Shown here one piece after another: positions 28,483 to 57,352 of a stretch of 59,968 nt of DNA. The stretch's first letter is position 1. Each line of letters opens with the position of its first letter. Location of the stretch: contig QMRC01000011.1 of NCBI GenBank assembly GCA_003649205.1, forward strand, positions 1 through 59,968, in the 5' to 3' direction. The notes under the pieces were generated by a model that was not told where the DNA came from, ran no database searches, and saw only the letters and a list, made by a program, of their open reading frames with translations. The stretch is from Thermoprotei archaeon. Lineage in GTDB: Archaea > Thermoproteota > Thermoprotei > Thermoproteales > B15-G16. The translations under genes were made by a program, and so were the position numbers.

Positions 28483-28486
28483 ATAG

Positions 28487-31400
28487 CTAGCTCACCTCAG
28501 CACTCATGGTAGATGTAACAGCAAGACATAGGTTAAATAAACCATCGGTCAAGCACTTTGCAGTACCAAGTACTTGTTGTGCTCTAGCACTTAACTCAAC
28601 AATCACTTTTGCAGCATATGCTAACTTATTGGTTACAAGATCCCTAAATGCTTCAGGTCCTCTTACTTCGATAAGATTGCTTAGGAACTTAATTGCTAAG
28701 TCTCTATCCTGAATCATGATCTCCATAATCGGTGTAGCAGTAGTTCTCTCTACGAACCTCTCTAAGCTTTCGTACTTCTCCAATATCCTGTAGAACGTTC
28801 TTCGTGACAATGTTTGCTCAAGAAGCGTGAACTTAACCAACTCATTAGCGTACCTAGTGAGTGCTGTTATATGCTCCAACGAAGGTTCCTTCTCCGGGTT
28901 ATTGGGTAGTATAGCTACTCTCAATCTACCCCTAGAGCTATAAGCTACAATCGTTACATCCTTCTCGTACATTGCTCTTGCCTCTCCTATCATGGTAGTA
29001 GCCTTTATACCATCCTTAGTTTCAAGCAGTGTTACAACATCCTCTATGGCAGCATATAATGGGTACATATAATGCGTATAGTACGCACAATAGCTTCTAC
29101 CAGCCAGCCCAAGAGCTGGAGCAATCGGCACATATGGTCTTTCGCCAACAACTATACAGTGGAAGAATGGTACCTTGTCTCTCTTCTCAATGCCGACATT
29201 GAACCCATCTTCAGGTACTTCCAGCATATAGCCTCGAATTGTGAATTTTACTGAAGCACCGATGCTATAAGCAGCTCTCGTCTCGTAAATCATATCTAGC
29301 ACATAATCTATCGGTATAGCAGCAAAATAATCATCACCGCCAGCATACACCACAAATCCTCTAAATGGTATACTTACTTCAACACTCCTGTACTTGACAC
29401 GAGTTCCCCGATACGTTGCTATTATATCTACTAGAGATTGCACCATTAATGCCCTACTTACCGACGTATGCCATGCAGGAGCTGTGGGTATTAATCCTTC
29501 TTTAGCTAGCTTGTCAAGGTACTCCTTTACACATCTAACATGTTCTAATAGATCTTCATGTCTTGCAGGTACCTTTACGTCCTCGATCCTTTCCTTCACT
29601 TTTCCTAGCTCTTCAAGTAAAACATTTACCGCATTCTCTAAATCACCCTGTGCCAAGTAATTAACTACTTCGGCCGCTCTACCTTCACATAGAGCTGCTA
29701 AGTACCTTATTAACCATTCACACTTTAATTTCGGATGTAAAGCCTTAGATATATTGCCCTGCAATAGCTTACCCATATAATCCCCATCTGCCTTGACGAG
29801 AGCTAAGTACCTTGTTGGGAATTTCAACCTGTCAATCTTAGTAACATCAACGTAGAAATTGCGTAAGTCACGCAGATGTGGAGTCTTTGGTTCAATGAAG
29901 TCATCATTTATGCTTGAAGCTTTCCACATCCACACTAATGGCAAAGCTAATCTTTTGTCCGCTTTAACTATTTCATCAACATAATACCTTAGCCAAGTAC
30001 CCCTCAATTTACCAACCCACTCATCAAGTCCTTCCACCAGCTTTGGATATCCTACACAGCTTTCGAGCCTACTTACAAGATCCTTAAGCCTCTCCCTACT
30101 CTTCATAGCTTCCCTCACCATCTTAATGTATATGGCTAGGAATTTCAGATTAGCAATGTCAGAAATCGATGGAACTTCAAAGAACTGTTCTCCAACCTCC
30201 CTACCTAGTAAGCGTCCAACTACGTGCTTTGTACCCTCACGTGTCGATAGCAATCTCTTAATTAGACAATATCCACAAAGCCTCTCACCATCGCTAAAAT
30301 ATGGCTCAAGATCAGTTCCTCTGATAGTAACTATTGGTGGCAACTTACCGCACACACTACAGCTCTCACGTAGCAATTCACCAACCGTACTAGCTGATGT
30401 TCCTATTGAAGTGTAAACCTTCTCATACCTATCTGTTAAGTTCGTTCCAGCTGCTGCATCAAGCTTAGTAGACCAATACATCTCCTGCAGCTTGAATATG
30501 AGTGAAAGCAGTAGATGGTATAGCTCAAAGTCTAGTAATACTAGCTCCCTGCCCCTTATGTCCAACTCCTTAAACCAAGGCAGCAGTTCCCTTAGCACCT
30601 TACTTAAGGCTTCAGGCTTTATCTCCTCCTCACCCGCATCAGGTATAATAGATCTAAATTGCCTAACAATCCAACACCTTGTGTACACAGTAAAGCCACG
30701 TTCTCTAAGTGCCTTAAGTGGGCATAACTCTCGCCTTGGACACCTTATGCATGAATCTTCGAATCTTTCAAGCTCAAAATACAGCACAGTTAACCTTAGG
30801 GGTAACGGTGGAGCTATAGTATAGCCGAGTTCATGTACCGTAGTTGTGAACATGTCTTTTAACGAACCTTCAGAGGTCTTCCCCAAAGTCTTCAACAGCG
30901 ATCGCAAGCTACTTTCGAGTCCCTTCAATGCCTCTACACGTGACCTACTTAACTCGTCTAGTGCATTTGCAGCACAATCACATAGAGCACTCCATATCTT
31001 GCTATACATGCTCGGAATCATGAGTAGGTTATGTAATGCATTTTGCTCACTAGGTAGTACAAGAGTAATTGTTGTTGGTACAACAGCATACATCGGGTAG
31101 TTAGCTACTTTGAATTTTCCTGTTAGGTCAGAGTATATGTACCCATACCAAATAGCTAACTCTGGAAGCCAGGATTTGAATCCAGGTAGTTTGCTCAAGA
31201 ACTCGTACACAGTTTCTCCATCTATGTTAGCTGTTAAGAATGTATGTAAGTAGAATGGATTATTTCTCGGACTAGGCATCAGCAGTACATCTGGTCCGTA
31301 CAATAGTACGAAATCCTCAACTAGCTTCCATGAAAGTACCGATGATAGCCAACTCGCAATGTAGAAGTCGCGTAGCTTACGAGAAGCCTGTATGAATTTT

Positions 31401-32053
31401 TGAACACCAGCTAGATCTAGGAGCCCGAGGTATCCAGCTATTTTGTCCTCTTCTTTAACTAAGTTTATCATCGTAGACGTAGCATATACGTGATCAAATA
31501 CAGAGTGTGTAGGTACCCTAGTATCTGCAGGACCTATTGGTAGACTGGCTCTCCACCAAGCAAACTCGTACAGTGTGTACAGCATGTAGTAGCGAGCCTT
31601 AGGATCGCCTAGTGACTTGAGTATATCGCTTAGGAACCTAACAAAGCTGTCCTTTATGACTCTTGGCTCGGGCTCGAGGGGAGGTATATACCTACCAACA
31701 ACGTCCACCGAAGTCTCGCACACACGTACTGCAAAGGGATTTTTCAATTCAACTCCCTTAAATTCAAATATTCCTGGAACTACACCAAGAATGTCTAGAA
31801 GCCATCTATCAAATGAAGCTGCTAAGCCATCAGCTAATCTAACTGCCCAGCCATATGTGAAATCTTGCTCTAGACCTAAATCCTTAGCTAGTTCGTAGGC
31901 TTCTTCTTCATGTCTCTTCTTGCCATACACACTGAATCCCTTAGCTATTACCCAAGGCTTCCATGGGGGATCATGCAATATAGCAGTGATCTTTCTACGC
32001 CAGAATGTACCATCTACCTCAGGCTTCTTTAACATTACTTCACCATCAATCAC
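28487..32053 (-). CDS. cas10: type III-B Cas10/Cmr2 with HD and Palm domains
   Basis: LHDPPWK (HD), PADTRVP, GVQKFIQASRKLRD, CSVCG..LCGYC, KADGDYMG, YAGGDD. Confidence 0.95.
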   Translation of the reverse strand: MIDGEVMLKKPEVDGTFWRRKITAILHDPPWKPWVIAKGFSVYGKKRHEEEAYELAKDLGLEQDFTYGWAVRLADGLAASFDRWLLDILGVVPGIFEFKGVELKNPFAVRVCETSVDVVGRYIPPLEPEPRVIKDSFVRFLSDILKSLGDPKARYYMLYTLYEFAWWRASLPIGPADTRVPTHSVFDHVYATSTMINLVKEEDKIAGYLGLLDLAGVQKFIQASRKLRDFYIASWLSSVLSWKLVEDFVLLYGPDVLLMPSPRNNPFYLHTFLTANIDGETVYEFLSKLPGFKSWLPELAIWYGYIYSDLTGKFKVANYPMYAVVPTTITLVLPSEQNALHNLLMIPSMYSKIWSALCDCAANALDELSRSRVEALKGLESSLRSLLKTLGKTSEGSLKDMFTTTVHELGYTIAPPLPLRLTVLYFELERFEDSCIRCPRRELCPLKALRERGFTVYTRCWIVRQFRSIIPDAGEEEIKPEALSKVLRELLPWFKELDIRGRELVLLDFELYHLLLSLIFKLQEMYWSTKLDAAAGTNLTDRYEKVYTSIGTSASTVGELLRESCSVCGKLPPIVTIRGTDLEPYFSDGERLCGYCLIKRLLSTREGTKHVVGRLLGREVGEQFFEVPSISDIANLKFLAIYIKMVREAMKSRERLKDLVSRLESCVGYPKLVEGLDEWVGKLRGTWLRYYVDEIVKADKRLALPLVWMWKASSINDDFIEPKTPHLRDLRNFYVDVTKIDRLKFPTRYLALVKADGDYMGKLLQGNISKALHPKLKCEWLIRYLAALCEGRAAEVVNYLAQGDLENAVNVLLEELGKVKERIEDVKVPARHEDLLEHVRCVKEYLDKLAKEGLIPTAPAWHTSVSRALMVQSLVDIIATYRGTRVKYRSVEVSIPFRGFVVYAGGDDYFAAIPIDYVLDMIYETRAAYSIGASVKFTIRGYMLEVPEDGFNVGIEKRDKVPFFHCIVVGERPYVPIAPALGLAGRSYCAYYTHYMYPLYAAIEDVVTLLETKDGIKATTMIGEARAMYEKDVTIVAYSSRGRLRVAILPNNPEKEPSLEHITALTRYANELVKFTLLEQTLSRRTFYRILEKYESLERFVERTTATPIMEIMIQDRDLAIKFLSNLIEVRGPEAFRDLVTNKLAYAAKVIVELSARAQQVLGTAKCLTDGLFNLCLAVTSTMSAEVS

Positions 32054-32937
32054 GCCATATCACCTACCAATAGCTTTACCTCACTAACTTCAAATTTCCC
32101 GTAACCAACTGATGTACGTGCACCTAAACCCAACTTACCAACCAACATAAGTGCTTTAATAATCTCCTTAGCAATGTCTTGAATCGAATAATCCTTCCCT
32201 GTCACTCTCTTCACCTCTAGTTTGAGGAATGGCGTAAGCGCTATGAATCCTCTGAAAACTATACCATCGGCAAGTGATACGTATACAACAGGATTAGGCC
32301 TCACCTTGCTCTCATCCAATTCGTCCTCTGTGTAATGTGGCGTAACTACATCTGGTAGCAGCACTCTGCCATACTCATTCTTAGTATTCACGAGATAGAA
32401 ATCCAGAAACAATACTGAAGTAGCTACAGATCTCTCATGACCCGGCTCTGGGCCAAATACTACCTCCTCTAATCGCTTTAGATCATCTGCAGCAATAACC
32501 CTCCAGCCATGTCTAATAGCTCCCTTAATGCTTGAACCAGGTATGTAGGGTACATTAAGTAATGGATCAAATGCAAGACCTATTTCGAATGCTGATCTGG
32601 CAAATGTAGCTCCAACACCGACTATTGCTCTACTTTTGAATTCCAATTTAACGTCAATCACGGTACAATCAAGTACCTTTAAAGCTTGAAGCACCTTGTC
32701 TAGGTAATTATTGACTATCTTGAATAGCTGCATACTGGAGTATGCTTTTAATAGTTTCTCAGCAAGTCTACGTTTTAGCACATTGTACTTCTCTTCGGCA
32801 CCCTGTACCTTAAGCTTCCATAGCTCACTACTCCAATGTGCTATCCATGTCCATAGATTGTGTTCAGTGCATGTAATGCGCTCTCGCTCAATAATCCTTC
32901 CTCCACCTAATCTCCCTCCAATCCTTTCATCCTTCAT
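32050..32937 (-). CDS. cmr6: type III-B Cmr6
   Basis: PYIPGSSIKGA, DVVTPHY, PNPV, GLGARTSVGYG. Confidence 0.9.
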   Translation of the reverse strand: MKDERIGGRLGGGRIIERERITCTEHNLWTWIAHWSSELWKLKVQGAEEKYNVLKRRLAEKLLKAYSSMQLFKIVNNYLDKVLQALKVLDCTVIDVKLEFKSRAIVGVGATFARSAFEIGLAFDPLLNVPYIPGSSIKGAIRHGWRVIAADDLKRLEEVVFGPEPGHERSVATSVLFLDFYLVNTKNEYGRVLLPDVVTPHYTEDELDESKVRPNPVVYVSLADGIVFRGFIALTPFLKLEVKRVTGKDYSIQDIAKEIIKALMLVGKLGLGARTSVGYGKFEVSEVKLLVGDMA

Positions 32938-32941
32938 ATCA

Positions 32942-34687
32942 TCACCTTAGTGCCTCTAATACAAACTCAAATGCTACCTCAAAGCACGTACGAATGAGGT
33001 CTAGTACATTAGCTGGAGGTTTCAATTCTTCGCATTTTCCTCGTCTAATCAGTCGTATAATTGATAACTCCCTCACAGGCGATAAACCACGTGTATCGCT
33101 AACCCAGACAAGCTCGCTTACTGGCCAATCCATAGAGATGGATCCCCATACAAGTACGAGTGCTCTATTAGTACGTGAATCATAGTTTAGTACACGCATG
33201 AATAGTGGACTAGGTCTACGTAAATTCATTCCAGGACTGTAGCCTGTGCCTCTTTGCTCTCTTGGTAAACCTAGAATCCAAGTATGCCATTTGCCATCTG
33301 CTACCTTAGGTGATCGACCACACAACTTCTTCCATGTAACCTTCATTGTTGCTTCGCCTATCTTCCTAAGTAAATGTGATAGCCCTGTTGTCTCCACTGA
33401 AATAACACGAATTCTCGTTATTTCTCTATCAAGTGTCAATGCGAAGTACCTAGGACATTTAGTGTAAAGTTCTCTTTTGAGCTTATCAAAGTCAATGCCT
33501 CTGCTTTTGCCAAACCGTTTAAGTGCGTTCTCTGCCTCCACTATAGCCGTCTCTATTAGCTTCCAGAGCTTATTTTCGGCTATCTCATGGTTCATCTTAT
33601 CAATTGGCTCGATGACCTCTTTCACTACTTTACGAATTTCATCGTATGGTATATAGCTTCTGTCTAAAAGTAATTTTAATGAACAGAAACCTCTTCGTGT
33701 ACATTGCCCATATCCGTATAGCAGTGCACTAAGTATTGCGGAGTATACCATTAGATAATCGAAGGACTTAATTGCGTCTAGTAGCACTCCAATTGATGGT
33801 AGACTTATACCCGCCTCCTTTAATGCCTCATAGTATCTTCTAGCATATTCTTCAAGAACCTCGTAGTTTAACCTTGTGATCTTTAGGTGGAGTTTACCCT
33901 GCTCTATTGACGATATCTTTTCATACATTATTTTGCGTATAGTCTCGGTAATGTTTTCGTACTTGATTTTCTCACATAGCGATGCAAGTACTAATACTAA
34001 CCTTTGTACTTCCTGTACCGATATCCGTCTTATTCTTTCCAATTGCTCCTTTATCTGCTTAAGCTCACTATGGATTTCGTATGTTAGCCCAAATTCGTAC
34101 CAGTAGTCAAGTAGCATGTCGACTATTCGTCGAATTCTCTGAATTGCCTGACGAAGCTTTTGTGTGTTTATACCTCCCCCAGACTTTAGCCACTCTATGT
34201 CCTTCAGGGTGCTTCTTTCACGTGTTATTAGCAAAGCTAAACGAGGTATTTCCTTAAAGCTTTCGATCTCATCCTCTTCAATGTATTTTTCCGGTATTAC
34301 CCTTGCATCGATGCTATATACTGAGCTTACTAGCTTTCCAGTTACTGGTACTTTGCCTCCCAGACATAGAACAAGTAGCTCCTTTACTAGCTTCTGGACC
34401 TTTTCATTACTAATGTCAACTCCGGCATGAATGGTTGCACCTAAGAGGAGGTGCTTCAGTGTATATCTTAGGACCCCTTTCACGCTTTTGCTCACGTACT
34501 GTTCAGACCAGGGATGCTCGGGACTGCCAATCACGTGTACTTCAAGAGGAGTTGCCTTATAGCTACCGATCCTCAGGGGCGTGATTATCTCAAATGTTAA
34601 CTCGCATACAGTCTTCAGACTTGTCTCCGCTAATTTACCTACCTCAGCTCTTATTGAGTCTATGTTAAGAGATACTTCCTGAACCAT
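32942..34687 (-). CDS. cmr1: type III-B Cmr1 (long form)
   Basis: ITPLRIGSY, KSVKGVLRY, GYGQCTRRGFCS, LGLPR, RRPSPL. Confidence 0.85.
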   Translation of the reverse strand: MVQEVSLNIDSIRAEVGKLAETSLKTVCELTFEIITPLRIGSYKATPLEVHVIGSPEHPWSEQYVSKSVKGVLRYTLKHLLLGATIHAGVDISNEKVQKLVKELLVLCLGGKVPVTGKLVSSVYSIDARVIPEKYIEEDEIESFKEIPRLALLITRERSTLKDIEWLKSGGGINTQKLRQAIQRIRRIVDMLLDYWYEFGLTYEIHSELKQIKEQLERIRRISVQEVQRLVLVLASLCEKIKYENITETIRKIMYEKISSIEQGKLHLKITRLNYEVLEEYARRYYEALKEAGISLPSIGVLLDAIKSFDYLMVYSAILSALLYGYGQCTRRGFCSLKLLLDRSYIPYDEIRKVVKEVIEPIDKMNHEIAENKLWKLIETAIVEAENALKRFGKSRGIDFDKLKRELYTKCPRYFALTLDREITRIRVISVETTGLSHLLRKIGEATMKVTWKKLCGRSPKVADGKWHTWILGLPREQRGTGYSPGMNLRRPSPLFMRVLNYDSRTNRALVLVWGSISMDWPVSELVWVSDTRGLSPVRELSIIRLIRRGKCEELKPPANVLDLIRTCFEVAFEFVLEALR

Positions 34688-34690
34688 GGT

Positions 34691-35254
34691 CTACCCACCG
34701 TACTTGGCATCTGTTAGTTCTTTGAGCACATTGTACATAGGTCTAAGGAAGTACATTACCAGAGCTAGCTCTGTTGTCGATAGCTCGGATATCTTCTCGA
34801 GTAGGTTCTCAACAGTTAAAGTACCCATACGTGGTACAGGACAATGTTGTGCTAGCCATTGCACAGTTGCGTAGAGAAATGCAGCATATCCAACGGCTTC
34901 ATCAAACTTTCCCTGTAACACACTTTTGACTTCTTCTATAGTTATCTTTCCATCCAGATACCCTGCTATAATGTCACATATACTGCATTCTACGCATCCT
35001 TGTCTATATTCTCTAACTTCTTTACCTAGCTTTTTGGCTATTTCTACTGGTACTCTAACTTTATCAGAGGCCTTGGCATATGCAAATGCTAAGGTAGCTA
35101 CAATACCTACATCCTCCATTAATTGTGGCAGCGTTCTGCATCGCGTACGGAATTTTTCACCATAATCCCGCTTATACTTGGCTAATTCATCAAATCGGCT
35201 TATTATTTCAAGGCAATGCTTTAAAGCGTCCTGCGATAACCTACGTATGGGCAT
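34691..35254 (-). CDS. cmr5: type III-B small subunit Cmr5
   Basis: FRTRCRTLPQLMEDVGIVATLAFAYAK, helical; position in the cmr operon. Confidence 0.85.
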   Translation of the reverse strand: MPIRRLSQDALKHCLEIISRFDELAKYKRDYGEKFRTRCRTLPQLMEDVGIVATLAFAYAKASDKVRVPVEIAKKLGKEVREYRQGCVECSICDIIAGYLDGKITIEEVKSVLQGKFDEAVGYAAFLYATVQWLAQHCPVPRMGTLTVENLLEKISELSTTELALVMYFLRPMYNVLKELTDAKYGG

Positions 35255-35260
35255 GCCTTG

Positions 35261-36286
35261 CTACACCCCAAGGAGCTTCACTATGCCACGACCTATCGTC
35301 TCATGACCTCCTAGGATTAGGTAGCCGCCTTCCTTCAGCTTTAGTTTCTCTGTAATGTACTCTTTGATCTCCTTCTCTCCTGGTTCTTTACCGGTTAGCT
35401 TCCTAAACTCTTCTGCCACATCTGCCTTTCTCACCATTGAGTATAGGAAAACTGTTACAAATATCGTATACTCTGGAACATTTTCCTCAAGCCAAGGACC
35501 TTCGTCAACTACCTTAATAGCCGGCTTGAGACGGACACGTGCTTGACGGATAATACTTCGCTCAATAATTTCACGACCAATTGTATCGGGAACTACTGCA
35601 AGACCAACTTCTGTCAATGTGCATTGCTTTGGTAGGTTATTTAGAAATGTATCCACTTCCTTTAGAGACCTTACCTTGAGCTTGAATTCTTCATTTAACA
35701 CAATTTCATTACCTATAGCTGTCTTTTGAAGGGCATTCGAGGTAACTATTGCAGTGTCTTCACTTAACTCTTGAGTAGTCTTTTCCAGCAATGCTTTAGC
35801 TATGTCGTAGTATCTCTTTGCGTCCTCACTACCATAGATGTCAAAATATAGCTTTGTATATGTTTTGAAATATCTTAGTAGTTGTGGTGTTGTAATATAT
35901 ATCCACACACCTCGCAGAGACCTAGCTGGAATTGCTAGCAACTTTCCCTCAAGTATGGCGATTGCACCTGTGAACATTTCTGTAACTCCACGTACTTCAG
36001 GAGGCGGACCAAAGAGAGCTTTAATTATAGGATTTCTGTTTGCTTCATTAATTGCCTCGTCTAACTTCTTACCATCTTTAATCAGCTTAGGTACTAATTC
36101 TGACACAAACCTTGCTCTCAATGGCCCCTTTAGACTCGATGGTGGTATCACTGGGTATCCAAACGCATCCCTCTGTATGGGTAGGTCAACTACACCTATT
36201 GCCCTTCCTGTACCCACGTGCACCGGTGTAATTGCCTCTATAAATACAAGAGAGGCTTCACGATACGTACCAGCGACCAAGCTCAA
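35261..36286 (-). CDS. cmr4: type III-B Cmr4 backbone RNase
   Basis: TPVHVGTG..VVDLPIQRD (catalytic Asp), PSSLKG, LGGHETIGRG. Confidence 0.95.
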   Translation of the reverse strand: MSLVAGTYREASLVFIEAITPVHVGTGRAIGVVDLPIQRDAFGYPVIPPSSLKGPLRARFVSELVPKLIKDGKKLDEAINEANRNPIIKALFGPPPEVRGVTEMFTGAIAILEGKLLAIPARSLRGVWIYITTPQLLRYFKTYTKLYFDIYGSEDAKRYYDIAKALLEKTTQELSEDTAIVTSNALQKTAIGNEIVLNEEFKLKVRSLKEVDTFLNNLPKQCTLTEVGLAVVPDTIGREIIERSIIRQARVRLKPAIKVVDEGPWLEENVPEYTIFVTVFLYSMVRKADVAEEFRKLTGKEPGEKEIKEYITEKLKLKEGGYLILGGHETIGRGIVKLLGV

Positions 36287-39600: not shown

Positions 39601-42600
39601 CCTCTAATACTTGTTTCAAGTGATCACATAGTTGATAAGGTTAAGAGAGGTGATAAGGTCTTTCAATGTTTGTTTCTGCTCCCTGGGCGTACATTGAGTA
39701 CTTCGGCTTCGGTTACCACACTTTCAATGTTTGTTTCACCGAGCTGATGTGTCAGTGGATTAAGGAAAATCTGTGAGATTTTTCTCTTTCAATGTTTGTT
39801 TCGATGCTGCAGCTGTTCGTGGAGACGGAGATGTTCGGTACAGTGGCTTTCAATGTTTGTTTCGCACGTGTACTTCCACATCACTCAGGAGTACATACTC
39901 GACCCACACAGTCTTTCAATGTTTGTTTCTCTACGTGAACCCACCTTAATCTTCTCCTTTTTCTCACTCATTCGGGGCTTTCAATGTTTGTTTCTGTAAA
40001 GGACCTAATACACACTTTCAGCCAACACAGCAGGAGGCTTTCAATGTTTGTTTCGATAGTAGCAATGCTGAGAGAAGGCTACAGTCCAAGCACAATCTTT
40101 CAATGTTTGTTTCGGCTCGTACTAGAGTACCTCATGTATGAGGGAACAGGAACAACACTCTTTCAATGTTTGTTTCTAGGCCACCCATTTGATGACCTAG
40201 AGAAGCTAGTTAGAGAATTCCTGCTTTCAATGTTTGTTTCGGAACAAACAAAGTTCTATGATGGAATTTCCGAGGAAATCAAGCTTTCAATGTTTGTTTC
40301 GGTAGAAGGTGATGGCTTTGTCAATACGTGAATCTAAAGTCACTTTCAATGTTTGTTTCTACGTATGCCCACGTTGTTTAGCAGAGCTCCAGTACGCAGG
40401 TCTTTCAATGTTTGTTTCACTAGGAGAATTAGGTACTGGGTCTTCAGGGCCATTGGCTGGATACCTTTCAATGTTTGTTTCTTTGCTTTACGGAAAAGTA
40501 TACACTGCAATAAAAGGACATATGATAATCTTTCCAGCTTTCAATGTTTGTTTCCCTGTTACAAAGACACTCAGAGAACATTTGAAGTTACCTCTTTCAA
40601 TGTTTGTTTCACTACAATGGCTGTGAGCCGCAGAGGACGTACATTGAACTTTCAATGTTTGCTTTCAATGTTTGTTTCGTTGCACGCGTTAATAAACAAG
40701 TGCCTTCTTGAGTTGTGCTTTCAATGTTTGTTTCGAGAGGTCTCTCAATACTTGTTGGTCTTCACAGGGATTATCGCTTTCAATGTTTGTTTCGGATTCT
40801 AGGATTAGGTTATATAACATGGACTGTGTTATCTTTCAATGTTTGTTTCAAGCAAATCAATGAGTTGCTGAGTGAGCTTAGGGAGCTCTTTCAATGTTTG
40901 TTTCCAGAGGAGAAAAAAGAGAAGAAAAAGAAAGTAATTGACCTTCACTTTCAATGTTTGTTTCAGCTCATAAAGTTCTTGTGTGGTTGCTAACTAAGGT
41001 AACTCCCTTTCAATGTTTGTTTCACTTCATTGCCCTAGTGAGGTTGTTCATGGAATTGCAATGGCTCTTTCAATGTTTGTTTCAACATGAAGTTGCGATT
41101 TTGAGAGATGGAAAGGTTATAGATCCTTTCAATGTTTGTTTCCAAGCTAAAGAATTAGTCAAAGAAAAAGAGCTAACAGTGATCTTCACTTTCAATGTTT
41201 GTTTCATTTGGGCGACCAACTGATTTACATTGTTCCTGAGAGACCCTTTCAATGTTTGTTTCGAGAAACTCAGACTTAGTAGGCTCGTAGTGGCTCACAC
41301 TTTCACCCTTTCAATGTTTGTTTCAAAAGAAAGGGATGCAAATAATAATTCACACCGAAATTGATTGCGGCTTTCAATGTTTGTTTCACAGGAAGTTATA
41401 CATTGCCGAAAGAGGGCATATGTTGATTCTTTCAATGTTTGTTTCAGGAACTGGGTGCTATTCGAGTGATGTCTGCTAGGCTCAAACTACCTGTTCTTTC
41501 AATGTTTGTTTCTCAGTAAGTACGGTAGAGGTGTACAGTGTACACCATTAATCATCTTTCAATGTTTGTTTCACGCAGTTCTGAGGCTACTGAGAGACCT
41601 AATGAAGTACGTCTTTCAATGTTTGTTTCACTAGCGTTTTTAACTGACAAGATAGTAAAGCTAGAAGACAAAGTCTTTCAATGTTTGTTTCTAAACTACC
41701 TACGAAAACTTTTCTCGTGAAGAAAATAGCTTTCAATGTTTGTTTCCAGTAGTTGATAAGTTGCGTAGAGTAACAACAGAATTACTAACTTTCAATGTTT
41801 GTTTCACAGGCTTGTTGAGGAATATAGAGGTGAGGTGTACGAGTTCTTTCAATGTTTGTTTCGACTTATCTCTAACCTGTCTATCTCTGTGTCTGTTAGT
41901 CCTCTTTCCTTCTTTCAATGTTTGTTTCGGTGCTTTCATTGCTGGTGTGGGTAGGGAGTACCTATTCCTCTTTCAATGTTTGTTTCACCCAAGTGAGTTT
42001 ACTGATGCAGTGAGGAAGCTAGCTGTGGTCTTTCAATGTTTGTTTCGTACAGGATCCTAAAGCGTTACGAAAGTGACCAGGAGTTTACTTTCAATGTTTG
42101 TTTCTAGGGACTTGATAGCGATTACGACACTTGCGCTACTGTTAATCCTTTCAATGTTTGTTTCGATATACTGTTAGCGACACGATGTTTGCTATGTTCC
42201 TCAAAATGTGCTTTCAATGTTTGTTTCAAGGAAGCTACGCTACAAGGCATTAAGTCACAGGTAGATACTTTCAATGTTTGTTTCGAACAGCAGGTTAAGC
42301 TACTCGAAGAACTCAGGAGAAGAGACTTTCAATGTTTGTTTCAGAAGTACCCAGAGAGAGAGGAGGAAGAAAAAGAGTCCTCATGGTACTTTCAATGTTT
42401 GTTTCAAATATCCAACAACAAGAGACGAGGAAGAACAGGAAGGGCTCTTTCAATGTTTGTTTCAACCAATGAGGGTTACAGTGGTTTACGAGTACGGGTG
42501 CAGTAACCTTTCAATGTTTGTTTCCAGAAGTACCGAGCAGACATCATAGTACCTGTACTACCACTATCAACTTTCAATGTTTGTTTCAAGTCTCATAAGA

Positions 42601-43540
42601 GTACGAAACGAATTGTCCTCAAAATTCGTCTTTCAATGTTTGTTTCGAGAAAATTGTAGTTCTGCTCACTTCACTACTTCTTACCTTAACTTTCAATGTT
42701 TGTTTCACGGAAGCTCTAGCTGATGTCCCTGTTGCAGTGTATCAAGACGGTACTTTCAATGTTTGTTTCTTTGCTTTACGAGAGGTGAGTAGACGTGAGG
42801 TACAGGGAATTACTTTCTTCACTCATGCTTTCAATGTTTGTTTCAAGAGATAGAGAGGGAACTAAAGAACATCGAAGACATGACCTTACCAAGCTTTCAA
42901 TGTTTGTTTCAATTCATCATAGGTGTCGAAATCTACAAACGTAACTTGTACTTTCAATGTTTGTTTCCATGAGTTGCTTCACCTAGTGTTTGCAGAGAAA
43001 CAGAAACGTCTTTCAATGTTTGTTTCGCGTGAACTCCTAGCTAAGTGTCTAGAAGAATTGAAAGCTAACTTTCAATGTTTGTTTCACGAGCTTTTTTCAT
43101 ACATCTCTAACCTCATTTCCAAGTCTCGTTCTCCTTTCAATGTTTGTTTCTTGAACCAGCCAAGGAATTTCGAATAATAGAATATACGAATTTGGTACCT
43201 TTCAATGTTTGTTTCATTCAGTTCTACGTACTCAGCACAGAGCAAGTAATCAGAATCTTTCAATGTTTGTTTCGGGTAGACAGTAATGGTGGAACAGACA
43301 TTGATTACGCTATTAGGGTCTTTCAATGTTTGTTTCGTCGGTACGGTTCCTGTCGTGATTACTCACGTATATGTCCTCGATGTGGTTCTTTCAATGTTTG
43401 TTTCACTCGACAACGGTACGGAAATCAAAGAGCTGAACTATGAGGTAAAGGGTAACTTTCAATGTTTGTTTCTTTGCTTTAAGCAATACAAATAGCAACA
43501 ACATACAGAGACACTTAAATACACTTTCAATGTTTGTTTC
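39601..43540 (-). CRISPR. CRISPR array, 17-bp repeat CTTTCAATGTTTGTTTC (crRNA sense GAAACAAACATTGAAAG), about 64 exact repeats
   Basis: exact repeats counted by eye from 39660 to 43524-43540; unique spacers mostly 38-51 nt; degenerate terminal repeat CCTCTAATACTTGTTTC at 39601; ATTGAAAG 3' end on the minus strand. Confidence 0.95.
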
Positions 43541-43760
43541 TTTGCTTTTGTTCATGACTGGTTCCTGTGTCTATGTTGTTTAACTGGTTAATTTTTGTTG
43601 CTTTTTGTTGTTTTGCTGATGTTATTCATTTGCTCTTTATCAAATGTGCTTCTGCCCAGTATGTCCTATATTTAAACCTTACCTATTGTCCCTGTGATGG
43701 TTCGGGTATATAAGGTTAACTCTATTTTGTGTGTTGCTTTCTGTGTCTTGGGTAAGTTTC
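43541..43760 (-). promoter_or_regulatory. CRISPR leader
   Basis: non-coding AT-rich stretch next to the intact end of the array, opposite the degenerate repeat; minus-strand TTTAAATA (about 43670) and TTATATA (about 43708) boxes. Confidence 0.7.
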
Positions 43761-48878: not shown

Positions 48879-49946
48879 TCATTGTCGCTTAGTTTCCTGA
48901 GATGTGAATTCTCTTCGAATGGTCTTGGATAACTTTATCCAGTTCAGGAGTTTGGTGTCTGGTGTAAGCAGTAGCATGGATGGTTCTTCATATGTTTCCT
49001 TTGGTTGAGGTAGTACGTACGTTGTTAGGTCTTTCCTCACTACTTCACCTACTTTGATCTTCGTGATTAGGTAGGTGTAGGTTAGTGCTGTTAGTAACCA
49101 CGATAATGCTCTGTATGTCGTAGTGTGTGTCTTACCCAGTACTTGATCTGGTTTGGGGTACCTTATGAGTGCTACGTGTATGCCGTACGTACTTGCTACC
49201 TGTGCTAGCTTGGTATCTGCCGTTATGAGGTATGGTTCAAGTACTAGTGCATTCTTCCTAATGTACTCTCCACAGCTCCGTACTATAACTACATCGCTAC
49301 TACACTCCTTATCCTCAATTGAAGGGATCTCTATGTGTGGTGTACAGCTTCTCTGTAATTGAATTTCGTAGAGTGCAAGCTGTGCTCTTCTACCTTCCAG
49401 TCCTGGTACTCCCTGAAGTATTGTCATTACCTTGGTAGGTAATCCAGATATTGTCTGTTGTATAGTGCTTAATTCCCTACCTACTCTAGATCTCGTGACT
49501 GCGTTTGCTATCTCTTCAAGTGCTTTACTGCAGATTCCTGTTAGTGTGTATCTCCAGGTATCTGTAGGTAGTTCCTGAAGGAGCTTGTGTACAGTACCTG
49601 TGTAGTACGCTGATGTATCGAAGTAGAGAATGGGTTTTCTGATGCTTTTTCCACTGTACTTCAGTACTTCATCTCTCAACGATTGTACTGCTGTATCGCT
49701 CACTATACCTGAGTACAGTAGACAGCACCTAGCTACATCTCTACTACGTTGACTTAACCAAGTTGGTTCTCCACGTAGATTCTCAATGTAGATCCTTGGA
49801 ACGTCAGTACTTAGGTCAATTGTCGCTAGGTCTATCCAGTAACCTCTATCTGGTATGGAGAGTATGAGTTCGCTACAATTCCTACGTGTGTAGTATGTTA
49901 GTACTGCTACTAGGTCACTAGTCGTTACGGTTGTTTCATTGAACAT
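48879..49946 (-). CDS. PIN-domain-like protein
   Basis: LYFDTSAY, ALEEI, SSDVVIV, LITADTKLAQVA. Confidence 0.7.
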   Translation of the reverse strand: MFNETTVTTSDLVAVLTYYTRRNCSELILSIPDRGYWIDLATIDLSTDVPRIYIENLRGEPTWLSQRSRDVARCCLLYSGIVSDTAVQSLRDEVLKYSGKSIRKPILYFDTSAYYTGTVHKLLQELPTDTWRYTLTGICSKALEEIANAVTRSRVGRELSTIQQTISGLPTKVMTILQGVPGLEGRRAQLALYEIQLQRSCTPHIEIPSIEDKECSSDVVIVRSCGEYIRKNALVLEPYLITADTKLAQVASTYGIHVALIRYPKPDQVLGKTHTTTYRALSWLLTALTYTYLITKIKVGEVVRKDLTTYVLPQPKETYEEPSMLLLTPDTKLLNWIKLSKTIRREFTSQETKRQ

Positions 49947-49948
49947 GG

Positions 49949-51805
49949 TTAGGATAGTAGCTCAATCTTCACTCTAAGTGGTATCTTTCTGTTTGGTGCT
50001 GCTAGTCCTGATATCAGTGCTTCACCAATGTCTAGGTCAGGTAGCATCTCTACGTCTTGCCTAATGACAGACTCACAGCTTCTCTGTATCTGTTCTTGAT
50101 CGTAGAAGTTCGTTACTCTGAGCGCTACTATTGTGCTGCATTGTGATAGTACAGTCATGTCTACTCTAGCTGGTCTCTGAGATATTATACAGAGTCCAAG
50201 TCCGTACTTCCTACCTTCAGTAGCTATCTTCCTCAAGATAGGTAGTGTCGTGCTCTCTCTAGCCTCTTCACCTGCTGGAGCATACCTATGAGCTTCCTCA
50301 ATGATGAGAAGCAGTAGGTCACCTTGTTCAGGTCTGTGTACCTCATCGAGATCTGGAAGTTCAGTACCTAAGCTCTTACTCAGCTCCTTGATGTAGTGTG
50401 TTGGCTTTGTTACACAGACTGTGAAGATCTTGTTTAGTAGGTGCGTGATAACTGGTTCAGGGTCTTGAAGTACTCTATGGAGGTCTATGCAGGTTACTGA
50501 TCTCGGCTCTAGTATCCTCAGTATGAGTGCTGTCTCTATGGTGTGTCGGTAGTAGGTTGATACGTAGGTGCTCTCTATGATTCTAAGGTCACGAGCAACA
50601 GAAGCTATTGACTGTGGGTGGTAACCTAGCTTCCTAAGTTCATTAAATACATCTCCCGACCCTAGTAGGAGCTGTGTTATCATCGATACATCATAGCAGT
50701 TCTCACCGAGGATCTGCTGCATACCAGACTCGAGATACTGCGTAGCTATGTCCTTAACTATGTCACTGAAGTAAGCTGATACACCCCTCCTAATAGCTAG
50801 TAATGTGCTAAGTGGTAGTAGTCTGGGTAGGTATAGGTTCATGAGGAGTACCCTACTACCTAGGATCTCCTTAACGAAATCTACCTCACTTGATAGTACA
50901 GCTGGGTTCTTAACATCAATCACCGCAATCTCTTCGAGAGGTACCTTAACTTGCTCGCTCAACTGCTCACTCAATGCCTTCAGCTCACTCTCTGAGGCAT
51001 ATGGTACTAGCACAGTTATCTTGAGATCACTACGACCTAGATCACTCCACAATTTAGATATTAGCGGTGTTGTACCACTCTCAACTAGTCCAAGACCTGT
51101 GTACTGACCCATGGGATCTAGTACCAGTACCTTACCCCTACTGTAGCTCTTGATGAAGCCATAGATCAGTCTCTTAGCTGTCTCCGTCTTACCAGCACCT
51201 GTCTGCGCTAGTATAGCTACGTGGTAGCACAATTTCTTAGGTACGAGGTAAACCTTGACATTTCTCTCATACGATAGGGTCCCCATGTAGATACCACACT
51301 TCATGTACTCATCTCCAAGTGACTCTGTGTGAATTACCTTCTCGAGAATCTCTGGACTCGGTCTAAGGACTAGAGATGTTGGTTGTGGTGGTATGTCTAC
51401 ACTGACTAGTTTCCACCTACAATCTTCTTCCTTCCTCAGTACACCTAGTAGCTGCAGCGTAGCTGTATAGGACTGTAGTTGCCTAGCTATCTGACTACCG
51501 GGTACCTGCTCAATTACCTTCCTAATTATCTCCGTTATGGCTTGAAGCTCTGTACGCTCCCTAGCTAACTGAACTAATTCAGATACTGAGGGTTGAACAG
51601 GAGATTGATATGGTCTTAAGTTAATTACCCTACAGAGGTAGTGCCTACTAACTGTCCTATCCTCAATGAAGAGGAGAGCACCTAGACCAACAACCTCACC
51701 AAACCCCATGTATAGCTGAGCGTAGACTGTTCTATGATCTCGTACTCTAGAGACAATACCGATACCAATACCTAACTCAGTACTCTGAGACATACCCAAA
51801 GACAT
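49949..51805 (-). CDS. herA: HerA-like ATPase/helicase
   Basis: N-terminal HAS-like barrel, HVAILAQTGAGKT, LDPMGQY, LIIEEAH, EGRKYG, SQRP. Confidence 0.9.
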   Translation of the reverse strand: MSLGMSQSTELGIGIGIVSRVRDHRTVYAQLYMGFGEVVGLGALLFIEDRTVSRHYLCRVINLRPYQSPVQPSVSELVQLARERTELQAITEIIRKVIEQVPGSQIARQLQSYTATLQLLGVLRKEEDCRWKLVSVDIPPQPTSLVLRPSPEILEKVIHTESLGDEYMKCGIYMGTLSYERNVKVYLVPKKLCYHVAILAQTGAGKTETAKRLIYGFIKSYSRGKVLVLDPMGQYTGLGLVESGTTPLISKLWSDLGRSDLKITVLVPYASESELKALSEQLSEQVKVPLEEIAVIDVKNPAVLSSEVDFVKEILGSRVLLMNLYLPRLLPLSTLLAIRRGVSAYFSDIVKDIATQYLESGMQQILGENCYDVSMITQLLLGSGDVFNELRKLGYHPQSIASVARDLRIIESTYVSTYYRHTIETALILRILEPRSVTCIDLHRVLQDPEPVITHLLNKIFTVCVTKPTHYIKELSKSLGTELPDLDEVHRPEQGDLLLLIIEEAHRYAPAGEEARESTTLPILRKIATEGRKYGLGLCIISQRPARVDMTVLSQCSTIVALRVTNFYDQEQIQRSCESVIRQDVEMLPDLDIGEALISGLAAPNRKIPLRVKIELLS

Positions 51806-53372
51806 ACCTCCTAGCTGTGAAATATCTGTGTACTAATGTAAGTGGTATTACCCTAAGTCTGAGGTACCTCTCGAGTACGTTAATGAACTCCCTCTCACTA
51901 GGTCTAATCCAGGAGTAGTAGTCAGCCATTAGTATGGGTGCAGGATACCCATGTACATTCACCTTGGATAGTGCAAGCACGTACCTAAGCGCTCTCTCTA
52001 GTTCGTCTTTCCTCAACTCTAGGTAGGCTGGGTACTCAACCCTTATGGGTGCTCTAATGGTTAGTAGTGACAGTGCTTTTCTAAGGGTACCTGGTTGGGC
52101 ATGTACTTCTCCTAGGATCTTGCTCTTGATGTAGTCTAGTGATTTAATCTCATCTAGGAATAGGTACGTGAACCTAATGTCGTATGGTCCTGCAAGTCCT
52201 CTATCCACGCTGTACACTATGTTACGTAGCTCTGTAGTGTAGTAACCGTAGTCTAGAGCTATCCTCGATAGTGAGTATGCTGTGTTTGGTAGCTTATCTA
52301 CATGAAACTCAACCAACTTACTACGCTTGAATCGAGGTGCTGATGACTCAGGTATTCCGTCTATGAGCAAGCCCTCCGTCGCCATCATGGTTAGTAGCTC
52401 CGCATCGGATATCCGTAGTTTAGTTCTGTGCTCTCTCACGTACTCCATAGCTACCCTAGTAGCGACGTAGTGCTCATCCACCGTAGCTCCTCGATAGGCC
52501 TCTATTAGCTGATTAAGCGTATCAAGCACGTAGACCGCGTGCTCAGTAATAGGTTCCTCATAGTACCTAACAACAGCATCCTCAAGCATGTTGCTAGCTC
52601 TCCTCACATCTCGTTGTAGCTCACGTACTAGTGACAGAACGGAGTACCTAATGAATAACCTACTCCTCCTAATATCTTCGAGAACCCCCATTGGGAATAC
52701 ACAGCTATCTCTACCTAATTCGAGGAGCTCATGTAGTATTGCTACGATTATCCTGGACGATACGTACCTTCTCCTACCTCCCTCCTCACTAGGCCTCACT
52801 GCACTGTAGTCATCCCTTACCTTTCTAAGGAACTCTACCACATCATCTTCATTCCAGCCAGCAACCATGAGTATCCTACGTAGAAGATCCTCAGGTATGT
52901 CGTAGGTACTCCTATCGTACTGAACTAACTGATGTACTAGTGGTCCATGTCTCAACACGAGAATCGGTCCAGTGAAGTATTTAGCAAGTCTCTCCTCTCT
53001 AGCTACCTTGAGCATTGTCGCTACTTCGAGTAAGTACCTGGCAGCTTCGTGAAATTCCTCCTGGGAGTAGAGTAGAATTGCTACAGGACCTATCCTGTCA
53101 CTCCATGGAATTCTGATCTCTTCACGAACTTCCCCACCAAGGACCTTCCTGCTGTAGATAGCTATCTTTGTTGCAGATACGTACTTCTCCTTTGAGAATA
53201 CGTACCCAGCATCAATAGCGTAGACGCCAGGAACCTCTTCACCGTGAAGCACCTTGAGTAAGGTATCTAGGTTAGTGAGGAGTTTGCTGAATCTCTCTAT
53301 AAGGTGTCGAGACCATGCTAGGACTGTGTACAGTACTGGGTCTAGTACTATGGGTTGTGGAAGAGAACTCAC
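51777..53372 (-). CDS. nurA: NurA-like nuclease (divergent)
   Basis: YAIDAG, LRHGPL, PIRVEYP, HGYPAPILMAD; overlaps the herA start. Confidence 0.75.
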   Translation of the reverse strand: MSSLPQPIVLDPVLYTVLAWSRHLIERFSKLLTNLDTLLKVLHGEEVPGVYAIDAGYVFSKEKYVSATKIAIYSRKVLGGEVREEIRIPWSDRIGPVAILLYSQEEFHEAARYLLEVATMLKVAREERLAKYFTGPILVLRHGPLVHQLVQYDRSTYDIPEDLLRRILMVAGWNEDDVVEFLRKVRDDYSAVRPSEEGGRRRYVSSRIIVAILHELLELGRDSCVFPMGVLEDIRRSRLFIRYSVLSLVRELQRDVRRASNMLEDAVVRYYEEPITEHAVYVLDTLNQLIEAYRGATVDEHYVATRVAMEYVREHRTKLRISDAELLTMMATEGLLIDGIPESSAPRFKRSKLVEFHVDKLPNTAYSLSRIALDYGYYTTELRNIVYSVDRGLAGPYDIRFTYLFLDEIKSLDYIKSKILGEVHAQPGTLRKALSLLTIRAPIRVEYPAYLELRKDELERALRYVLALSKVNVHGYPAPILMADYYSWIRPSEREFINVLERYLRLRVIPLTLVHRYFTARRYVFGYVSEY

Positions 53373-54563: not shown

Positions 54564-55247
54564 GTGGAGTTCGGTGATGGTGATGGTGTGAGGCTTGGTT
54601 TACTCCCCGTTACAGTGTACGCTAGGGATCTCGTTGATTACCTCATATGCCCTCACCGCATATACTTAAGGAGGTACCTGTACCTACGTGGAGTAGTTAC
54701 GGAGTACATGAGTGTTGGTGGTGAGGTACATAAGCTCCTGTACATGTACCTTCAGGGACGTGACGTTGGGAGGGAGCTGGTTAGGTACGGGATTGATGTG
54801 GGTAAGTTACGTGAGGTCTATAGTGAGCTTAGGAAGTTAGGTGATGTGGAGTGTGAGGTCGAGGTAGGGTATGGGCCGCTTGCTGGTTCCATAGATTTGC
54901 TCGCTGGTGGGGTCCCTGTAGAGGTTAAGTACAGTACGAGACCTAGGTTCGGTGATGTGGTGCAGCTTGCATTCTACGTACTCTTACTGGAGCTCTCGAA
55001 GGGAAGGAACATATCTCGAGGTTACTTACTGTACCTCCCCTCCTGTAATCTCATTGAGATCAAGGTTGAGAGTTGGTTAAAGAGACTTGTTCTCGAGTTT
55101 TGTAAGGAGGTTCAACTCATTAAGTTAGGTCTCGTAGATTCTAGTCCTCGGTCGAGAAGAGCTTGCAAGGGGTGTGAGCTAGGTATGTACTGTAAATTCC
55201 GTGGTGAGGGGGGTGCCGAAGAGAGGTCTCTGGCTTCTCGTAGGTAG
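54564..55247 (+). CDS. cas4: Cas4 exonuclease
   Basis: YLICP, GGEVH, GSIDL, VEVK, QLAFY, CKGC.....C. Confidence 0.9.
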   Translation: MEFGDGDGVRLGLLPVTVYARDLVDYLICPHRIYLRRYLYLRGVVTEYMSVGGEVHKLLYMYLQGRDVGRELVRYGIDVGKLREVYSELRKLGDVECEVEVGYGPLAGSIDLLAGGVPVEVKYSTRPRFGDVVQLAFYVLLLELSKGRNISRGYLLYLPSCNLIEIKVESWLKRLVLEFCKEVQLIKLGLVDSSPRSRRACKGCELGMYCKFRGEGGAEERSLASRR

Positions 55248-57297: not shown

Positions 57298-57352
57298 CAA
57301 GTAAGTAACTACGTGAGGTATCGATATCAGTAACCACACAGGTACACACTCT

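Follow-up and report, generated by a model that had tools for sequence, protein, structure and literature searches.

In an archaeal CRISPR array assigned to Thermoprotei, and in two further arrays, one of them on an unrelated metagenome contig, we found that a small fraction of the repeat units carry an additional segment of exactly eight nucleotides that is a recurrent copy of the array's own leader and is not derived from the spacer that it precedes. Among the 151 internal units of the three arrays, 142 are 17 nucleotides long and nine are 25 nucleotides long, the extra 8 nt being leader sequence. We consider it very probable that new spacers are usually inserted with a duplication of 17 bp, and that about 6% of the integrations duplicate 25 bp through a leader-side cut displaced by 8 bp.

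Arrays with 17-nucleotide repeats and their cas genes

The array, A1, lies in a window of 59,968 nt (the whole stretch of DNA that was analyzed, contig QMRC01000011.1), where it occupies positions 39660–43540 on the minus strand. It consists of 64 repeats and 63 spacers, with the leader on the right. All 64 repeats are exact copies of the 17-nt sequence CTTTCAATGTTTGTTTC, which reads GAAACAAACATTGAAAG in the crRNA sense (minus strand), and the spacers between them are all different and 38–58 nt in length (median 43). A1 thus shows the identical direct repeats interspaced with unique spacers typical of CRISPR arrays, but its repeat falls short of the usual length of 21–37 bp given in the part of Haft 2005 compared here. 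The positions flanking the repeats contain at most 0.2 bit of information, and no Rfam family was matched by the 17-nt-repeat array. The spacers point to mobile elements, with full-length matches of 88–100% identity to contigs C17, C20, C26 and C8, virus-like contigs of the same assembly. The source genome is a metagenome-assembled bin, estimated to be 93.8% complete with 4.2% contamination.

The A1 leader (43541–43700, minus strand) was aligned with the flank of A2, a sister array on contig C4, the two showing 83% column identity. It starts with TTTGCTTT (43541–43548) and contains a conserved block, CATGACTGGTTCCTGTGT, at 43553–70, corresponding to positions −13 to −30, as well as a TATA-like box at 43665–43678, the promoter reading of which was made by eye. 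The A2 leader starts with TTTGCCGT; within the first eight nucleotides, the two leaders have in common only TTTGC (5/8) and the last T, and differ at two of the eight positions. The position of the leader at one end and the polarized growth of A1 are indicated by the conservation of the right flank in both arrays and by the spacer matches, as leader-near spacers match their targets at 100% and trailer-end spacers at 88–98%. According to a Logan contig of sequencing run X1, the leader end varies within the population.

Pfam matches in the window identified type III-B (Cmr) effectors at 27331–36286 on the minus strand (Cmr3, Cas10/Cmr2, RAMPs and Cmr5), a Cas6 of 352 aa at 53461–54519 on the minus strand, where the family match covers the C-terminal part only, and a Cas4 at 54564–55247 on the plus strand. 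A relaxed Pfam scan of the unnamed neighboring ORFs gave nothing usable. Cas2 is located at the window end (59528–59818, minus strand), and its presumed partner is a Cas1 outside the window, at G000:C4:122313–123275, that adjoins the A2 leader; the 17-nt arrays are thus accompanied by cas genes that include those for adaptation. The genome contains a second adaptation module, Cas1–Cas2 at C1:267629–268878, and the C4 Cas1, which has aligned catalytic motifs, shares 26% identity with the other Cas1 of the genome. Judged from the sequences, the C4 Cas1 and the window's Cas2 and Cas4 are a separate adaptation set that belongs to the 17-nt arrays. This Cas1 is an outlier, its nearest relatives being 28–32% identical; in three of the six loci of these relatives the adjacent arrays have 30-nt and 35-nt repeats, and at the other three there is no array within the DNA examined. 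In sequence comparisons with the PDB, it was best matched by structures of archaeal Cas1, among them 4wj0, and these are nearer than the casposase entry 6opm.

Contig C1 also carries two canonical arrays with a 25-nt repeat, GAATCTTGATTAGAAGAATTGAAAG, and a median spacer length of 45 nt. Both this repeat and the 17-nt repeat end in the 8-nt ATTGAAAG, which we take to be the crRNA handle; as read from the sequence, the 17-nt repeat has a handle like that of type I-A. The 17-nt arrays lack the 24–25-nt repeat and the 5'-CCN PAM that would go with it. Protospacer matches were retained at E ≤ 0.01 and at least 55% spacer coverage; the low-stringency search of the own genome mostly returned noise, and of the 32 retained rows we regarded as protospacers only matches that reached 82% identity or more along most of the spacer length. 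The dinucleotide CC was present at −3/−2 in none of the ten protospacers of the 17-nt arrays, seven of which have C at −2, and in all five protospacers of the 25-nt arrays (CCA in 4/4 and CCC in one weaker match).

Leader-derived octamers within the arrays

In A1, TTTGCTTTACG comes directly after the internal repeats at 40465 and 42753, TTTGCTTTAAG after the internal repeat at 43456 and TTTGCTTTTGT after the terminal repeat at 43524; the apparent spacers of the three internal units are, in this order, 56, 58 and 51 nt long. The original prediction had started from these same repeats, common segments and lengths, all of which were reproduced on recounting, but the unit of 25–27 nt that it derived from them has to be shortened to 25 nt: the common part is exactly eight nucleotides, and the ACG and AAG beyond it belong to the spacers. 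The common part is TTTGCTTT, identical to the first eight nucleotides of the A1 leader. The long-form units, all on the minus strand, therefore consist of repeat 14 and the octamer at 40482–40489 (unit 40465–40489, leaving a true spacer of 48 nt at 40490–40537), repeat 52 and the octamer at 42770–42777 (unit 42753–42777, true spacer of 50 nt at 42778–42827), and repeat 63 and the octamer at 43473–43480 (unit 43456–43480), which flanks the newest spacer. The leader-adjacent repeat 64 and the leader's own octamer together span 43524–43548 (minus strand), the 25-bp segment that would be duplicated in long-form events.

The pattern recurs independently in A2 and in the metagenome contig L035. A2 contains 73 repeats, and four of its 72 internal units begin with TTTGCCGT; the same octamer begins two of the 16 units on L035, the spacers of which are entirely different from those of A1 and A2. 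With the three among 63 units in A1, this gives nine long-form units out of 151 (~6%).

The added segment was exactly 8 nt in all nine cases, and its offset was always 0. The octamers are array-specific, and no A1 or A2 unit carries the octamer of the other array at offset 0. In a comparison of unit starts with the own leader, covering A1 and A2 only (the L035 octamer was compared with the A2 leader), no unit had a leader prefix of 4–7 nt, and the remaining 128 internal units matched over at most 3 nt. Identity of the long-form units to the leader ends at 8 nt, extending to 9 nt in two of the seven A1 and A2 cases by a chance A. The probability of a spacer beginning with the A1 octamer by chance is ~1.3e-5, compared with the observed 3/63. 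The spacer-side border was intact in all 137 repeats of A1 and A2, and 7 of their 135 internal units (9/151 when L035 is included) have the leader-side site shifted by 8 bp. The true spacers of the long forms are 38–55 nt in length and did not differ in this respect from normal-form spacers (Mann–Whitney p = 0.28, 9 vs. 140 spacers).

Protospacers running on through the octamer had been named in the original prediction as the observation that would speak for an origin in the spacer. The newest A1 spacer (43481–43523, minus strand, 43 nt), which is flanked by a long-form unit, matches C17:9063–9105 in 43 of 43 positions, and the match ends exactly at the octamer boundary; the eight bases preceding the matched segment in the target are unlike TTTGCTTT. 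C17 is a virus-like contig co-assembled with the source genome. Virus-derived Logan contigs from runs X1 and X2, which come from different studies, align to 43481–43523 only, have unlike sequence on both sides and so give the same boundary. A further Logan contig from run X1, assembled independently, covers 43227–43510 and with it the junction of repeat, octamer and spacer. A second line of evidence comes from sibling spacers. Both ends of the long-form spacer at 40490–40537 (A1#14) coincide with those of the normal-form spacer A2#28, to which it is identical at 40 of 48 positions and which represents a variant of the same protospacer. A third sibling, A1#29, has the leader-distal end in common. 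Both siblings follow directly on a plain 17-nt repeat, begin at the same base as A1#14 and lack the octamer. Because the match to C17 ends at the octamer and the siblings are without it, TTTGCTTT is a copy of the leader and not spacer sequence. Among the nine long-form spacers, one has a mapped protospacer and another one has siblings, and for the remaining seven the assignment is by octamer identity alone.

For the spacer at 42778–42827, a search of the contigs of the same genome gave no reliable protospacer, only a partial match of 75%. The whole A1 array had no blastn match in a phage collection. The single match in IMG/VR to the degenerate motif of the three sibling spacers had flanks unlike the spacers and was judged to be due to chance. 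IMG/VR contained no relatives of the largest protein of C17, and thus provided no further protospacers for the remaining long-form spacers.

A probable displacement of the leader-side cut and competing explanations

The simplest source of the TTTGCTTT copy is a second leader-side attack site. In most integrations, the integrase would make staggered cuts 17 bp apart, at the leader–repeat and the repeat–spacer junctions, and the 17-bp repeat would be duplicated. In about 6% of them, the leader-side cut would lie deeper in the leader, by exactly 8 bp, and the spacer-side cut would stay unmoved; gap repair would then duplicate 25 bp, comprising eight leader bases and the repeat, and the leader would be restored. 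On the side facing the leader, the older repeat copy would keep the eight leader bases, which there resemble the start of a long spacer. Of the two leader-side attack sites 8–10 nt apart that had been predicted for this array, the second site is thereby retained and the spacing narrows to a single value, 8 in nine of nine cases. The altered ruler in adaptation that was proposed along with them is plausible.

In the crRNA sense, the −8 site reads GAACA|AAAGC in A1 and GGTCT|ACGGC in A2, with no common sequence, and its position is therefore likely to depend on distance rather than on sequence. The exact same offset of 8 bp at unlike sequences in the two arrays fits a ruler, and we infer such a mechanism; either the repeat or the conserved leader block at −13 to −30 could serve as its reference point. 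In the neighboring crRNA, the extra eight bases would become part of the 3' tail and leave the 17-nt repeat and the ATTGAAAG handle unaffected. To judge by this placement in the predicted transcript, variant units should therefore be harmless and selectively neutral, which would explain their persistence.

Given that the octamer is a leader copy, the −8 events are probably made by the arrays' own divergent Cas1–Cas2. A more specific version, which we put forward only tentatively, is that this Cas1–Cas2 uses the spacer-side border as its anchor and places the leader-side cut with a two-state ruler of either 17 or 25 bp. Under this reading, a spacing of 17 bp looks too short for an integrase holding a spacer of ~43 bp to engage the two sites simultaneously, so that integration may be a sequential process or require the DNA to be strongly distorted. 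If that were true, the 25-bp events would record the relaxed geometry of the integrase complex.

The long-form units could also stem from cross-talk, with the C1 Cas1–Cas2 occasionally inserting spacers into the 17-nt arrays, anchored on the common ATTGAAAG end and measuring its native 25 bp, which would reach 8 bp into the leader. The long unit has exactly the length of the C1 repeat and both repeats have this end, but the two types of array have unrelated leaders. A −8 site defined by distance rather than sequence would suit a foreign ruler, yet no reciprocal effect was seen, with a shortened repeat in none of the 52 units of the 25-nt arrays. While spacer lengths do not separate the classes (the C1 median of 45 nt lies within the 38–55 nt of the long forms), the PAMs do: GCA, found at the only long-form protospacer that was mapped, agrees with the 17-nt class and not with the consistent CC of the 25-nt arrays. 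Furthermore, the identical boundaries of the long-form A1#14 and the normal-form A2#28 suggest the same processing machinery. The PAM and spacer-boundary data disfavor cross-talk, and we regard it as unlikely.

Considerably less probable still is the idea, close to the original prediction's account of how the 17-mer arose, that a 25–27-nt repeat is ancestral and that the integrase keeps the 25-bp geometry, the 17-bp mode having been acquired secondarily. Its 27-nt version is refuted by the assignment of ACG and AAG to the spacers. A length of 25 nt is the usual size of repeats ending in ATTGAAAG, and the 24–25 nt of type I-A are the shortest among type I in the part of Crawley 2018 compared, but the searches described below revealed no array whose regular repeat is the long form, and the Cas1 proteins most closely related to this one adjoin, at three of six loci, the arrays with 30- and 35-nt repeats described above. 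The A1 and A2 leaders do have TTTGC in common beside the repeat; nevertheless, the octamers differ between the arrays and always copy the present-day leader (TTTGCTTT in A1, TTTGCCGT in A2 and L035), and they therefore carry no information about an ancestor. The other arrays with a long repeat that the original prediction called for did not turn up: there were no matches to the same or a longer repeat among the genome contigs searched, a single match among the metagenome contigs, which had the same 17-nt form, and no occurrence of the repeat in the family's only other genome, which is 71% complete. The 14 loci hit by a relaxed pattern for the repeat tail all belong to bacteria, as judged from their titles, and none is a long-form array.

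Finally, an octamer that is derived from the spacer or the PAM, from recombination with the leader junction or from an assembly artifact would account for its constant position at the spacer end and for the affected spacers looking long, but is hardly credible given the protospacer and sibling boundaries, the array-specific octamers, an identity to the leader that ends at 8 nt where recombination would carry more, and the recurrence on L035 and in the independent X1 contig across the junction.

Comparison with known integration systems

The displaced leader-side cut that we favor can be set against systems in which the size of the repeat duplication has been traced to anchor distances, the type I-B system of Haloarcula hispanica (Wang 2016, PMC4872114) and the type I-E system of Escherichia coli (Goren 2016, PMC5039180). 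In the parts of these papers compared, it is the spacer-side site that shifts, by 1–3 bp in engineered mutants, against a fixed leader-side site. As in those systems, aberrant duplications have discrete sizes when a cut site moves. Our arrays do not follow the pattern of a fixed leader-side and a measured spacer-side site, however: in these natural wild-type arrays, the fixed site is the one on the spacer side, and in ~6% of the units the leader-side site is moved by exactly 8 bp. Within the same parts of the two papers, the proposed leader-side displacement is without precedent in H. hispanica I-B and E. coli I-E.

For Pyrococcus furiosus Cas1–Cas2, the compared part of Grainy 2019 (PMC6698737) describes paired opposite-strand sites 30 bp apart and the importance of an A-rich mid-repeat block and of G as the first repeat base. 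The arrays studied here resemble that system in being archaeal, in the ATTGAAAG-type repeat end and in the set distance between the sites, but the distance is 17 and rarely 25 bp in place of 30 bp, and the −8 site begins with A in both arrays. Type I-A/III-B crenarchaeal arrays are similar in the ATTGAAAG end of the repeat and the nearby Cmr module and Cas6; in contrast to them, the regular repeat of 17 nt is 7–8 nt below the shortest class in the compared part of Crawley 2018, the protospacers show no CC PAM (0/10) and the Cas1 is an outlier. The family 1 casposase, as described in the compared part of Wang 2021 (PMC8464041), produces a target-site duplication of 13 bp and has a ruler motif. 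The short staggered integration is alike, with 17 bp falling between 13 bp and normal CRISPR repeats, whereas our loci have a bona fide Cas1 with Cas2, a spacer array and a leader, and the Cas1 is nearer to CRISPR structures than to 6opm.

In the portions of the literature compared, the 17-bp repeat is far shorter than any repeat class. A literature search, with a coverage that lies outside subscription journals, found no report of natural 17-nt or unusually short repeats, of this repeat string or of natural leader-derived repeat extensions.

How the integrase chooses its cut site, and with it the repeat length, has been established for only a handful of model systems, by means of engineered mutants. 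Arrays A1, A2 and L035 preserve the traces of more than 150 natural integrations, with the leader-side cut apparently at one or the other of two exact positions 8 bp apart. The two leaders with different −8 sequences form a natural substrate pair and, together with the very divergent cognate Cas1–Cas2–Cas4, could be used to test what anchors the ruler and what the minimum length of a functional repeat is. Standard array finders, which expect repeats of at least ~23 nt, may miss such loci or miscall their spacers.

A1 also contains a 13-nt partial repeat (40649–40661) that directly abuts full repeat 17, the two spanning 40649–40678 on the minus strand. This looks like a duplication of the repeat without a spacer, at an offset of +4.

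The 17-nt arrays and their leader

The window is contig C11 of a metagenome bin (2.07 Mb, 31 contigs, 93.8% complete) and contains a CRISPR array, A1 (39660–43540), with 64 exact copies of the repeat CTTTCAATGTTTGTTTC and 63 spacers of 38 to 58 nt (median 43). The genome contains a second array of this kind, the sister array A2, in which the 17-mer occurs in 73 exact copies (contig C4, 116612–121111). The repeat is also present 17 times on L035, a metagenome contig of 1,079 nt, whose spacers differ entirely from those of the other two arrays. Positions flanking the 17-mer hold at most 0.2 bit of information across 135 units, and the duplicated unit is therefore truly 17 nt. All 137 repeats of A1 and A2 are identical, trailer ends included; such ends usually carry degenerate repeats. 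Read on the minus strand, the A1 repeat is GAAACAAACATTGAAAG, with the 3' end ATTGAAAG, which in archaeal type I-A and III-B systems is the 8-nt handle of the crRNA; a comparison with Rfam gave no matching family. A type III-B Cmr module, CARF proteins, Cas6, Cas4 and Cas2 are all encoded inside the window. A HerA-like ATPase gene and two unnamed large ORFs adjoin Cas6 (48879–53372, minus strand), and a Piwi-domain (prokaryotic Argonaute-like) gene lies between cas4 and cas2 (56119–57597, minus strand).

The right flank of A1 is the leader, since it can be aligned with the A2 flank (83% column identity) and the identity of spacers to their targets is highest nearby, at 100% in comparison with 88–98% at the far ends. 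Common to both flanks are a TATA-like box (43665–43678 in the window) and the block CATGACTGGTTCCTGTGT (43553–43570). In one record (number 7) of the Logan sequencing run X1, the leader and the first repeat (43524) are joined to a spacer other than that of the window; the population is therefore heterogeneous at the leader end and varies in its newest spacers.

Leader-derived octamers behind the repeat

As the original prediction had read from the sequence, the repeats at 40465, 42753 and 43456 and the leader-adjacent repeat at 43524 are each followed directly by TTTGCTTT, and the three apparent spacers behind it measure 56, 58 and 51 nt. The A2 leader is homologous to that of A1, yet begins with TTTGCCGT; four of the 72 internal units of A2 begin with this octamer and none with TTTGCTTT. 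With two of the 16 internal units of L035 also starting with TTTGCCGT, a leader octamer is found in 9 of 151 internal units (∼6%) over the three arrays, at offset 0 every time, while its chance probability is ∼1e-5 per spacer. In A1 and A2, the octamer is that of the array's own leader in every case; both L035 long forms (repeat plus octamer) carry the A2 octamer, the L035 leader itself lying off the contig. Identity to the leader spans 8 nt in five of the A1 and A2 long forms and 9 nt in two, where the ninth nucleotide happens to be A, the base with which spacers most often begin; the remaining units of these arrays match the leader over 3 nt at most.

Targets and sibling spacers show that the octamer is not spacer sequence. 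The newest A1 spacer, 51 nt in appearance, matches contig C17 of the same assembly at 43/43 positions from its ninth base on, and the eight preceding bases of the target are unlike TTTGCTTT. In two sequencing runs, each from a different study, independent Logan contigs likewise align only to 43481–43523, beyond which they carry the same flanking viral sequence. Two siblings of the spacer behind the octamer at 40482 stem from variants of its protospacer, and each is preceded by a plain 17-nt repeat: A2 spacer 28 (48 nt, 40/48 identical) is equal at both ends and A1 spacer 29 (41 nt) at the leader-distal end. The original prediction, which would have failed on a protospacer match running through the octamer, holds here, as the match halts at it. 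Of the proposed 25–27 nt for the long unit, 25 nt is exact and 27 nt is not, since the following ACG or AAG are spacer bases.

Proposed integration mechanism and candidate integrases

The long forms would arise if the leader-side nick fell 8 bp upstream and the spacer-side nick stayed unmoved: gap repair would then duplicate 25 bp, restore the leader and leave eight bases on the older repeat copy. The arrangement so predicted is the one observed, although the mechanistic steps are deduced from the pattern. On the spacer side, the border is undisturbed in every one of the 137 A1 and A2 repeats. In crRNA sense, the –8 junctions, GAACA|AAAGC in A1 and GGTCT|ACGGC in A2, have nothing in common, which argues that the site is probably set by distance. 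The extra 8 nt would become part of the neighbouring crRNA, in its 3' tail, and are presumably harmless.

The genome has two Cas1 genes. The first, with a Cas2, adjoins two ordinary arrays on contig C1 (269684–271821 and 281171–282804), whose 25-nt repeat, GAATCTTGATTAGAAGAATTGAAAG, also ends in ATTGAAAG. The second (C4:122313–123275; minus strand of record L032, 1345–2310) adjoins the A2 leader; an ORF of 385 aa that belongs to no known family lies directly upstream. This second Cas1 shares 26% identity with the first, and its catalytic motifs can be aligned with those of archaeal Cas1 structures. By sequence comparison it is an outlier: in a search of 5.8 billion proteins (17 matches at E ≤ 1e-10), the best non-self matches reached 37–38% identity over less than half of the protein, and among 401 genomes of the phylum, 23, its own counted, had a match at E ≤ 1e-18, the best at 31%. 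Protospacers of the C1 arrays carry 5'-CCA in four of four cases, plus CCC in one weaker match, whereas none of 10 protospacers of the 17-nt arrays has CC at –3/–2; the genome thus houses two adaptation systems that differ in their PAM choice.

The 25-nt integrase might occasionally act on the 17-nt arrays and measure its native 25 bp, the length of the long form. We consider this improbable: there is no reciprocal effect (17-nt units in the 25-nt arrays, 0/52), the mapped long-form protospacer has GCA rather than CCA or CCC, and long-form and normal-form sibling spacers have identical boundaries. The lack of a CC PAM and the equal boundaries, seen in a small sample of one protospacer and one sibling set, point to the long forms being made by the 17-nt arrays' own machinery.

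The original prediction had also offered 25–27 nt as the full or ancestral repeat. Nothing in the results shows that 25 nt came first; the octamers are copies of the leaders as they are today and vary from array to array. Arrays that regularly use the long form as their repeat were not found in the family (one other genome, 71% complete), in genome_contigs, in metagenome_contigs, where L035 alone matched, or by a relaxed tail pattern (14 loci, bacterial). Among six loci examined around the nearest Cas1 relatives, three have arrays, with repeats of 35, 30 and 30 nt, and the DNA examined at the other three contained none. Two other routes to the long forms fail: growth from the other end could account for the last unit only, and recombination with the leader should bring more than 8 nt.

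Two further sites touch on the position of the leader-side cut. At window 40649–40678, a 13-nt partial repeat, CTTTCAATGTTTG, abuts full repeat 17, and the apparent 51-nt spacer before that repeat thus consists of 38 nt and this fragment; a spacerless repeat duplication in which the leader-side cut fell 4 bp into the repeat would fit. In A2 (C4:120084–120119, record L054), only TT, the first two leader bases, separates two full repeats, which fits a spacerless duplication with the cut at –2.

Known systems and targeted elements

The Haloarcula hispanica I-B and Escherichia coli I-E systems (PMC4872114, PMC5039180) have a fixed leader-side and a measured spacer-side site, the reverse of the pattern here, and the paired sites of Pyrococcus furiosus (PMC6698737) differ from it in lying 30 bp apart. 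The shortest type I repeats are given as the 24–25 nt of type I-A (Crawley 2018), repeats are reported to range from 21 to 37 bp (Haft 2005) and a family 1 casposase duplicates 13 bp (PMC8464041); the 17-bp repeat falls between the casposase and these CRISPR sizes. The literature searched, mostly outside subscription journals, gave no report of this repeat string, of natural 17-nt CRISPR repeats or of natural leader-derived repeat extensions. The outline is that of ordinary CRISPR adaptation; unusual are the short repeat, the outlier Cas1 and the proposed natural two-position leader-side cut.

Contig C17 (records L052/L053) looks like a virus: it encodes a glycosyltransferase and a coiled-coil protein of 1,087 aa, and its other ORFs are unknown. 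Spacers of L035 and of both types of array match it. Some protospacer sites were sampled more than once, from virus variants that had diverged (A1 spacers 14 and 29 with A2 spacer 28; A1 spacer 10 with A2 spacer 60): these spacers (window 40241, 40490 and 41388; C4 spacers 28 and 60) have the leader-distal end in common, and the other end may differ by 7 nt. Several spacers match the 84-kb contig C8 (e.g., 82426, 82285, 68028 and 48112), and contigs C20 and C27 belong with C17 and C8 in this set. An integrated element may reside in C8, in which case the matches there would amount to self-targeting.

Stray repeats occur on three contigs, and their flanks gave no target matches. C15 has a mini-array of two 17-nt repeats and a 31-nt spacer (41937–42001), and a copy with one mismatch lies at the start of C30 (13–29). 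The 4.4-kb contig C26, which also contains the protospacer of window spacer 22, has a solitary repeat (75–91) just downstream of the TATA-like TTTAAATA. These repeats may be element-borne repeat units.
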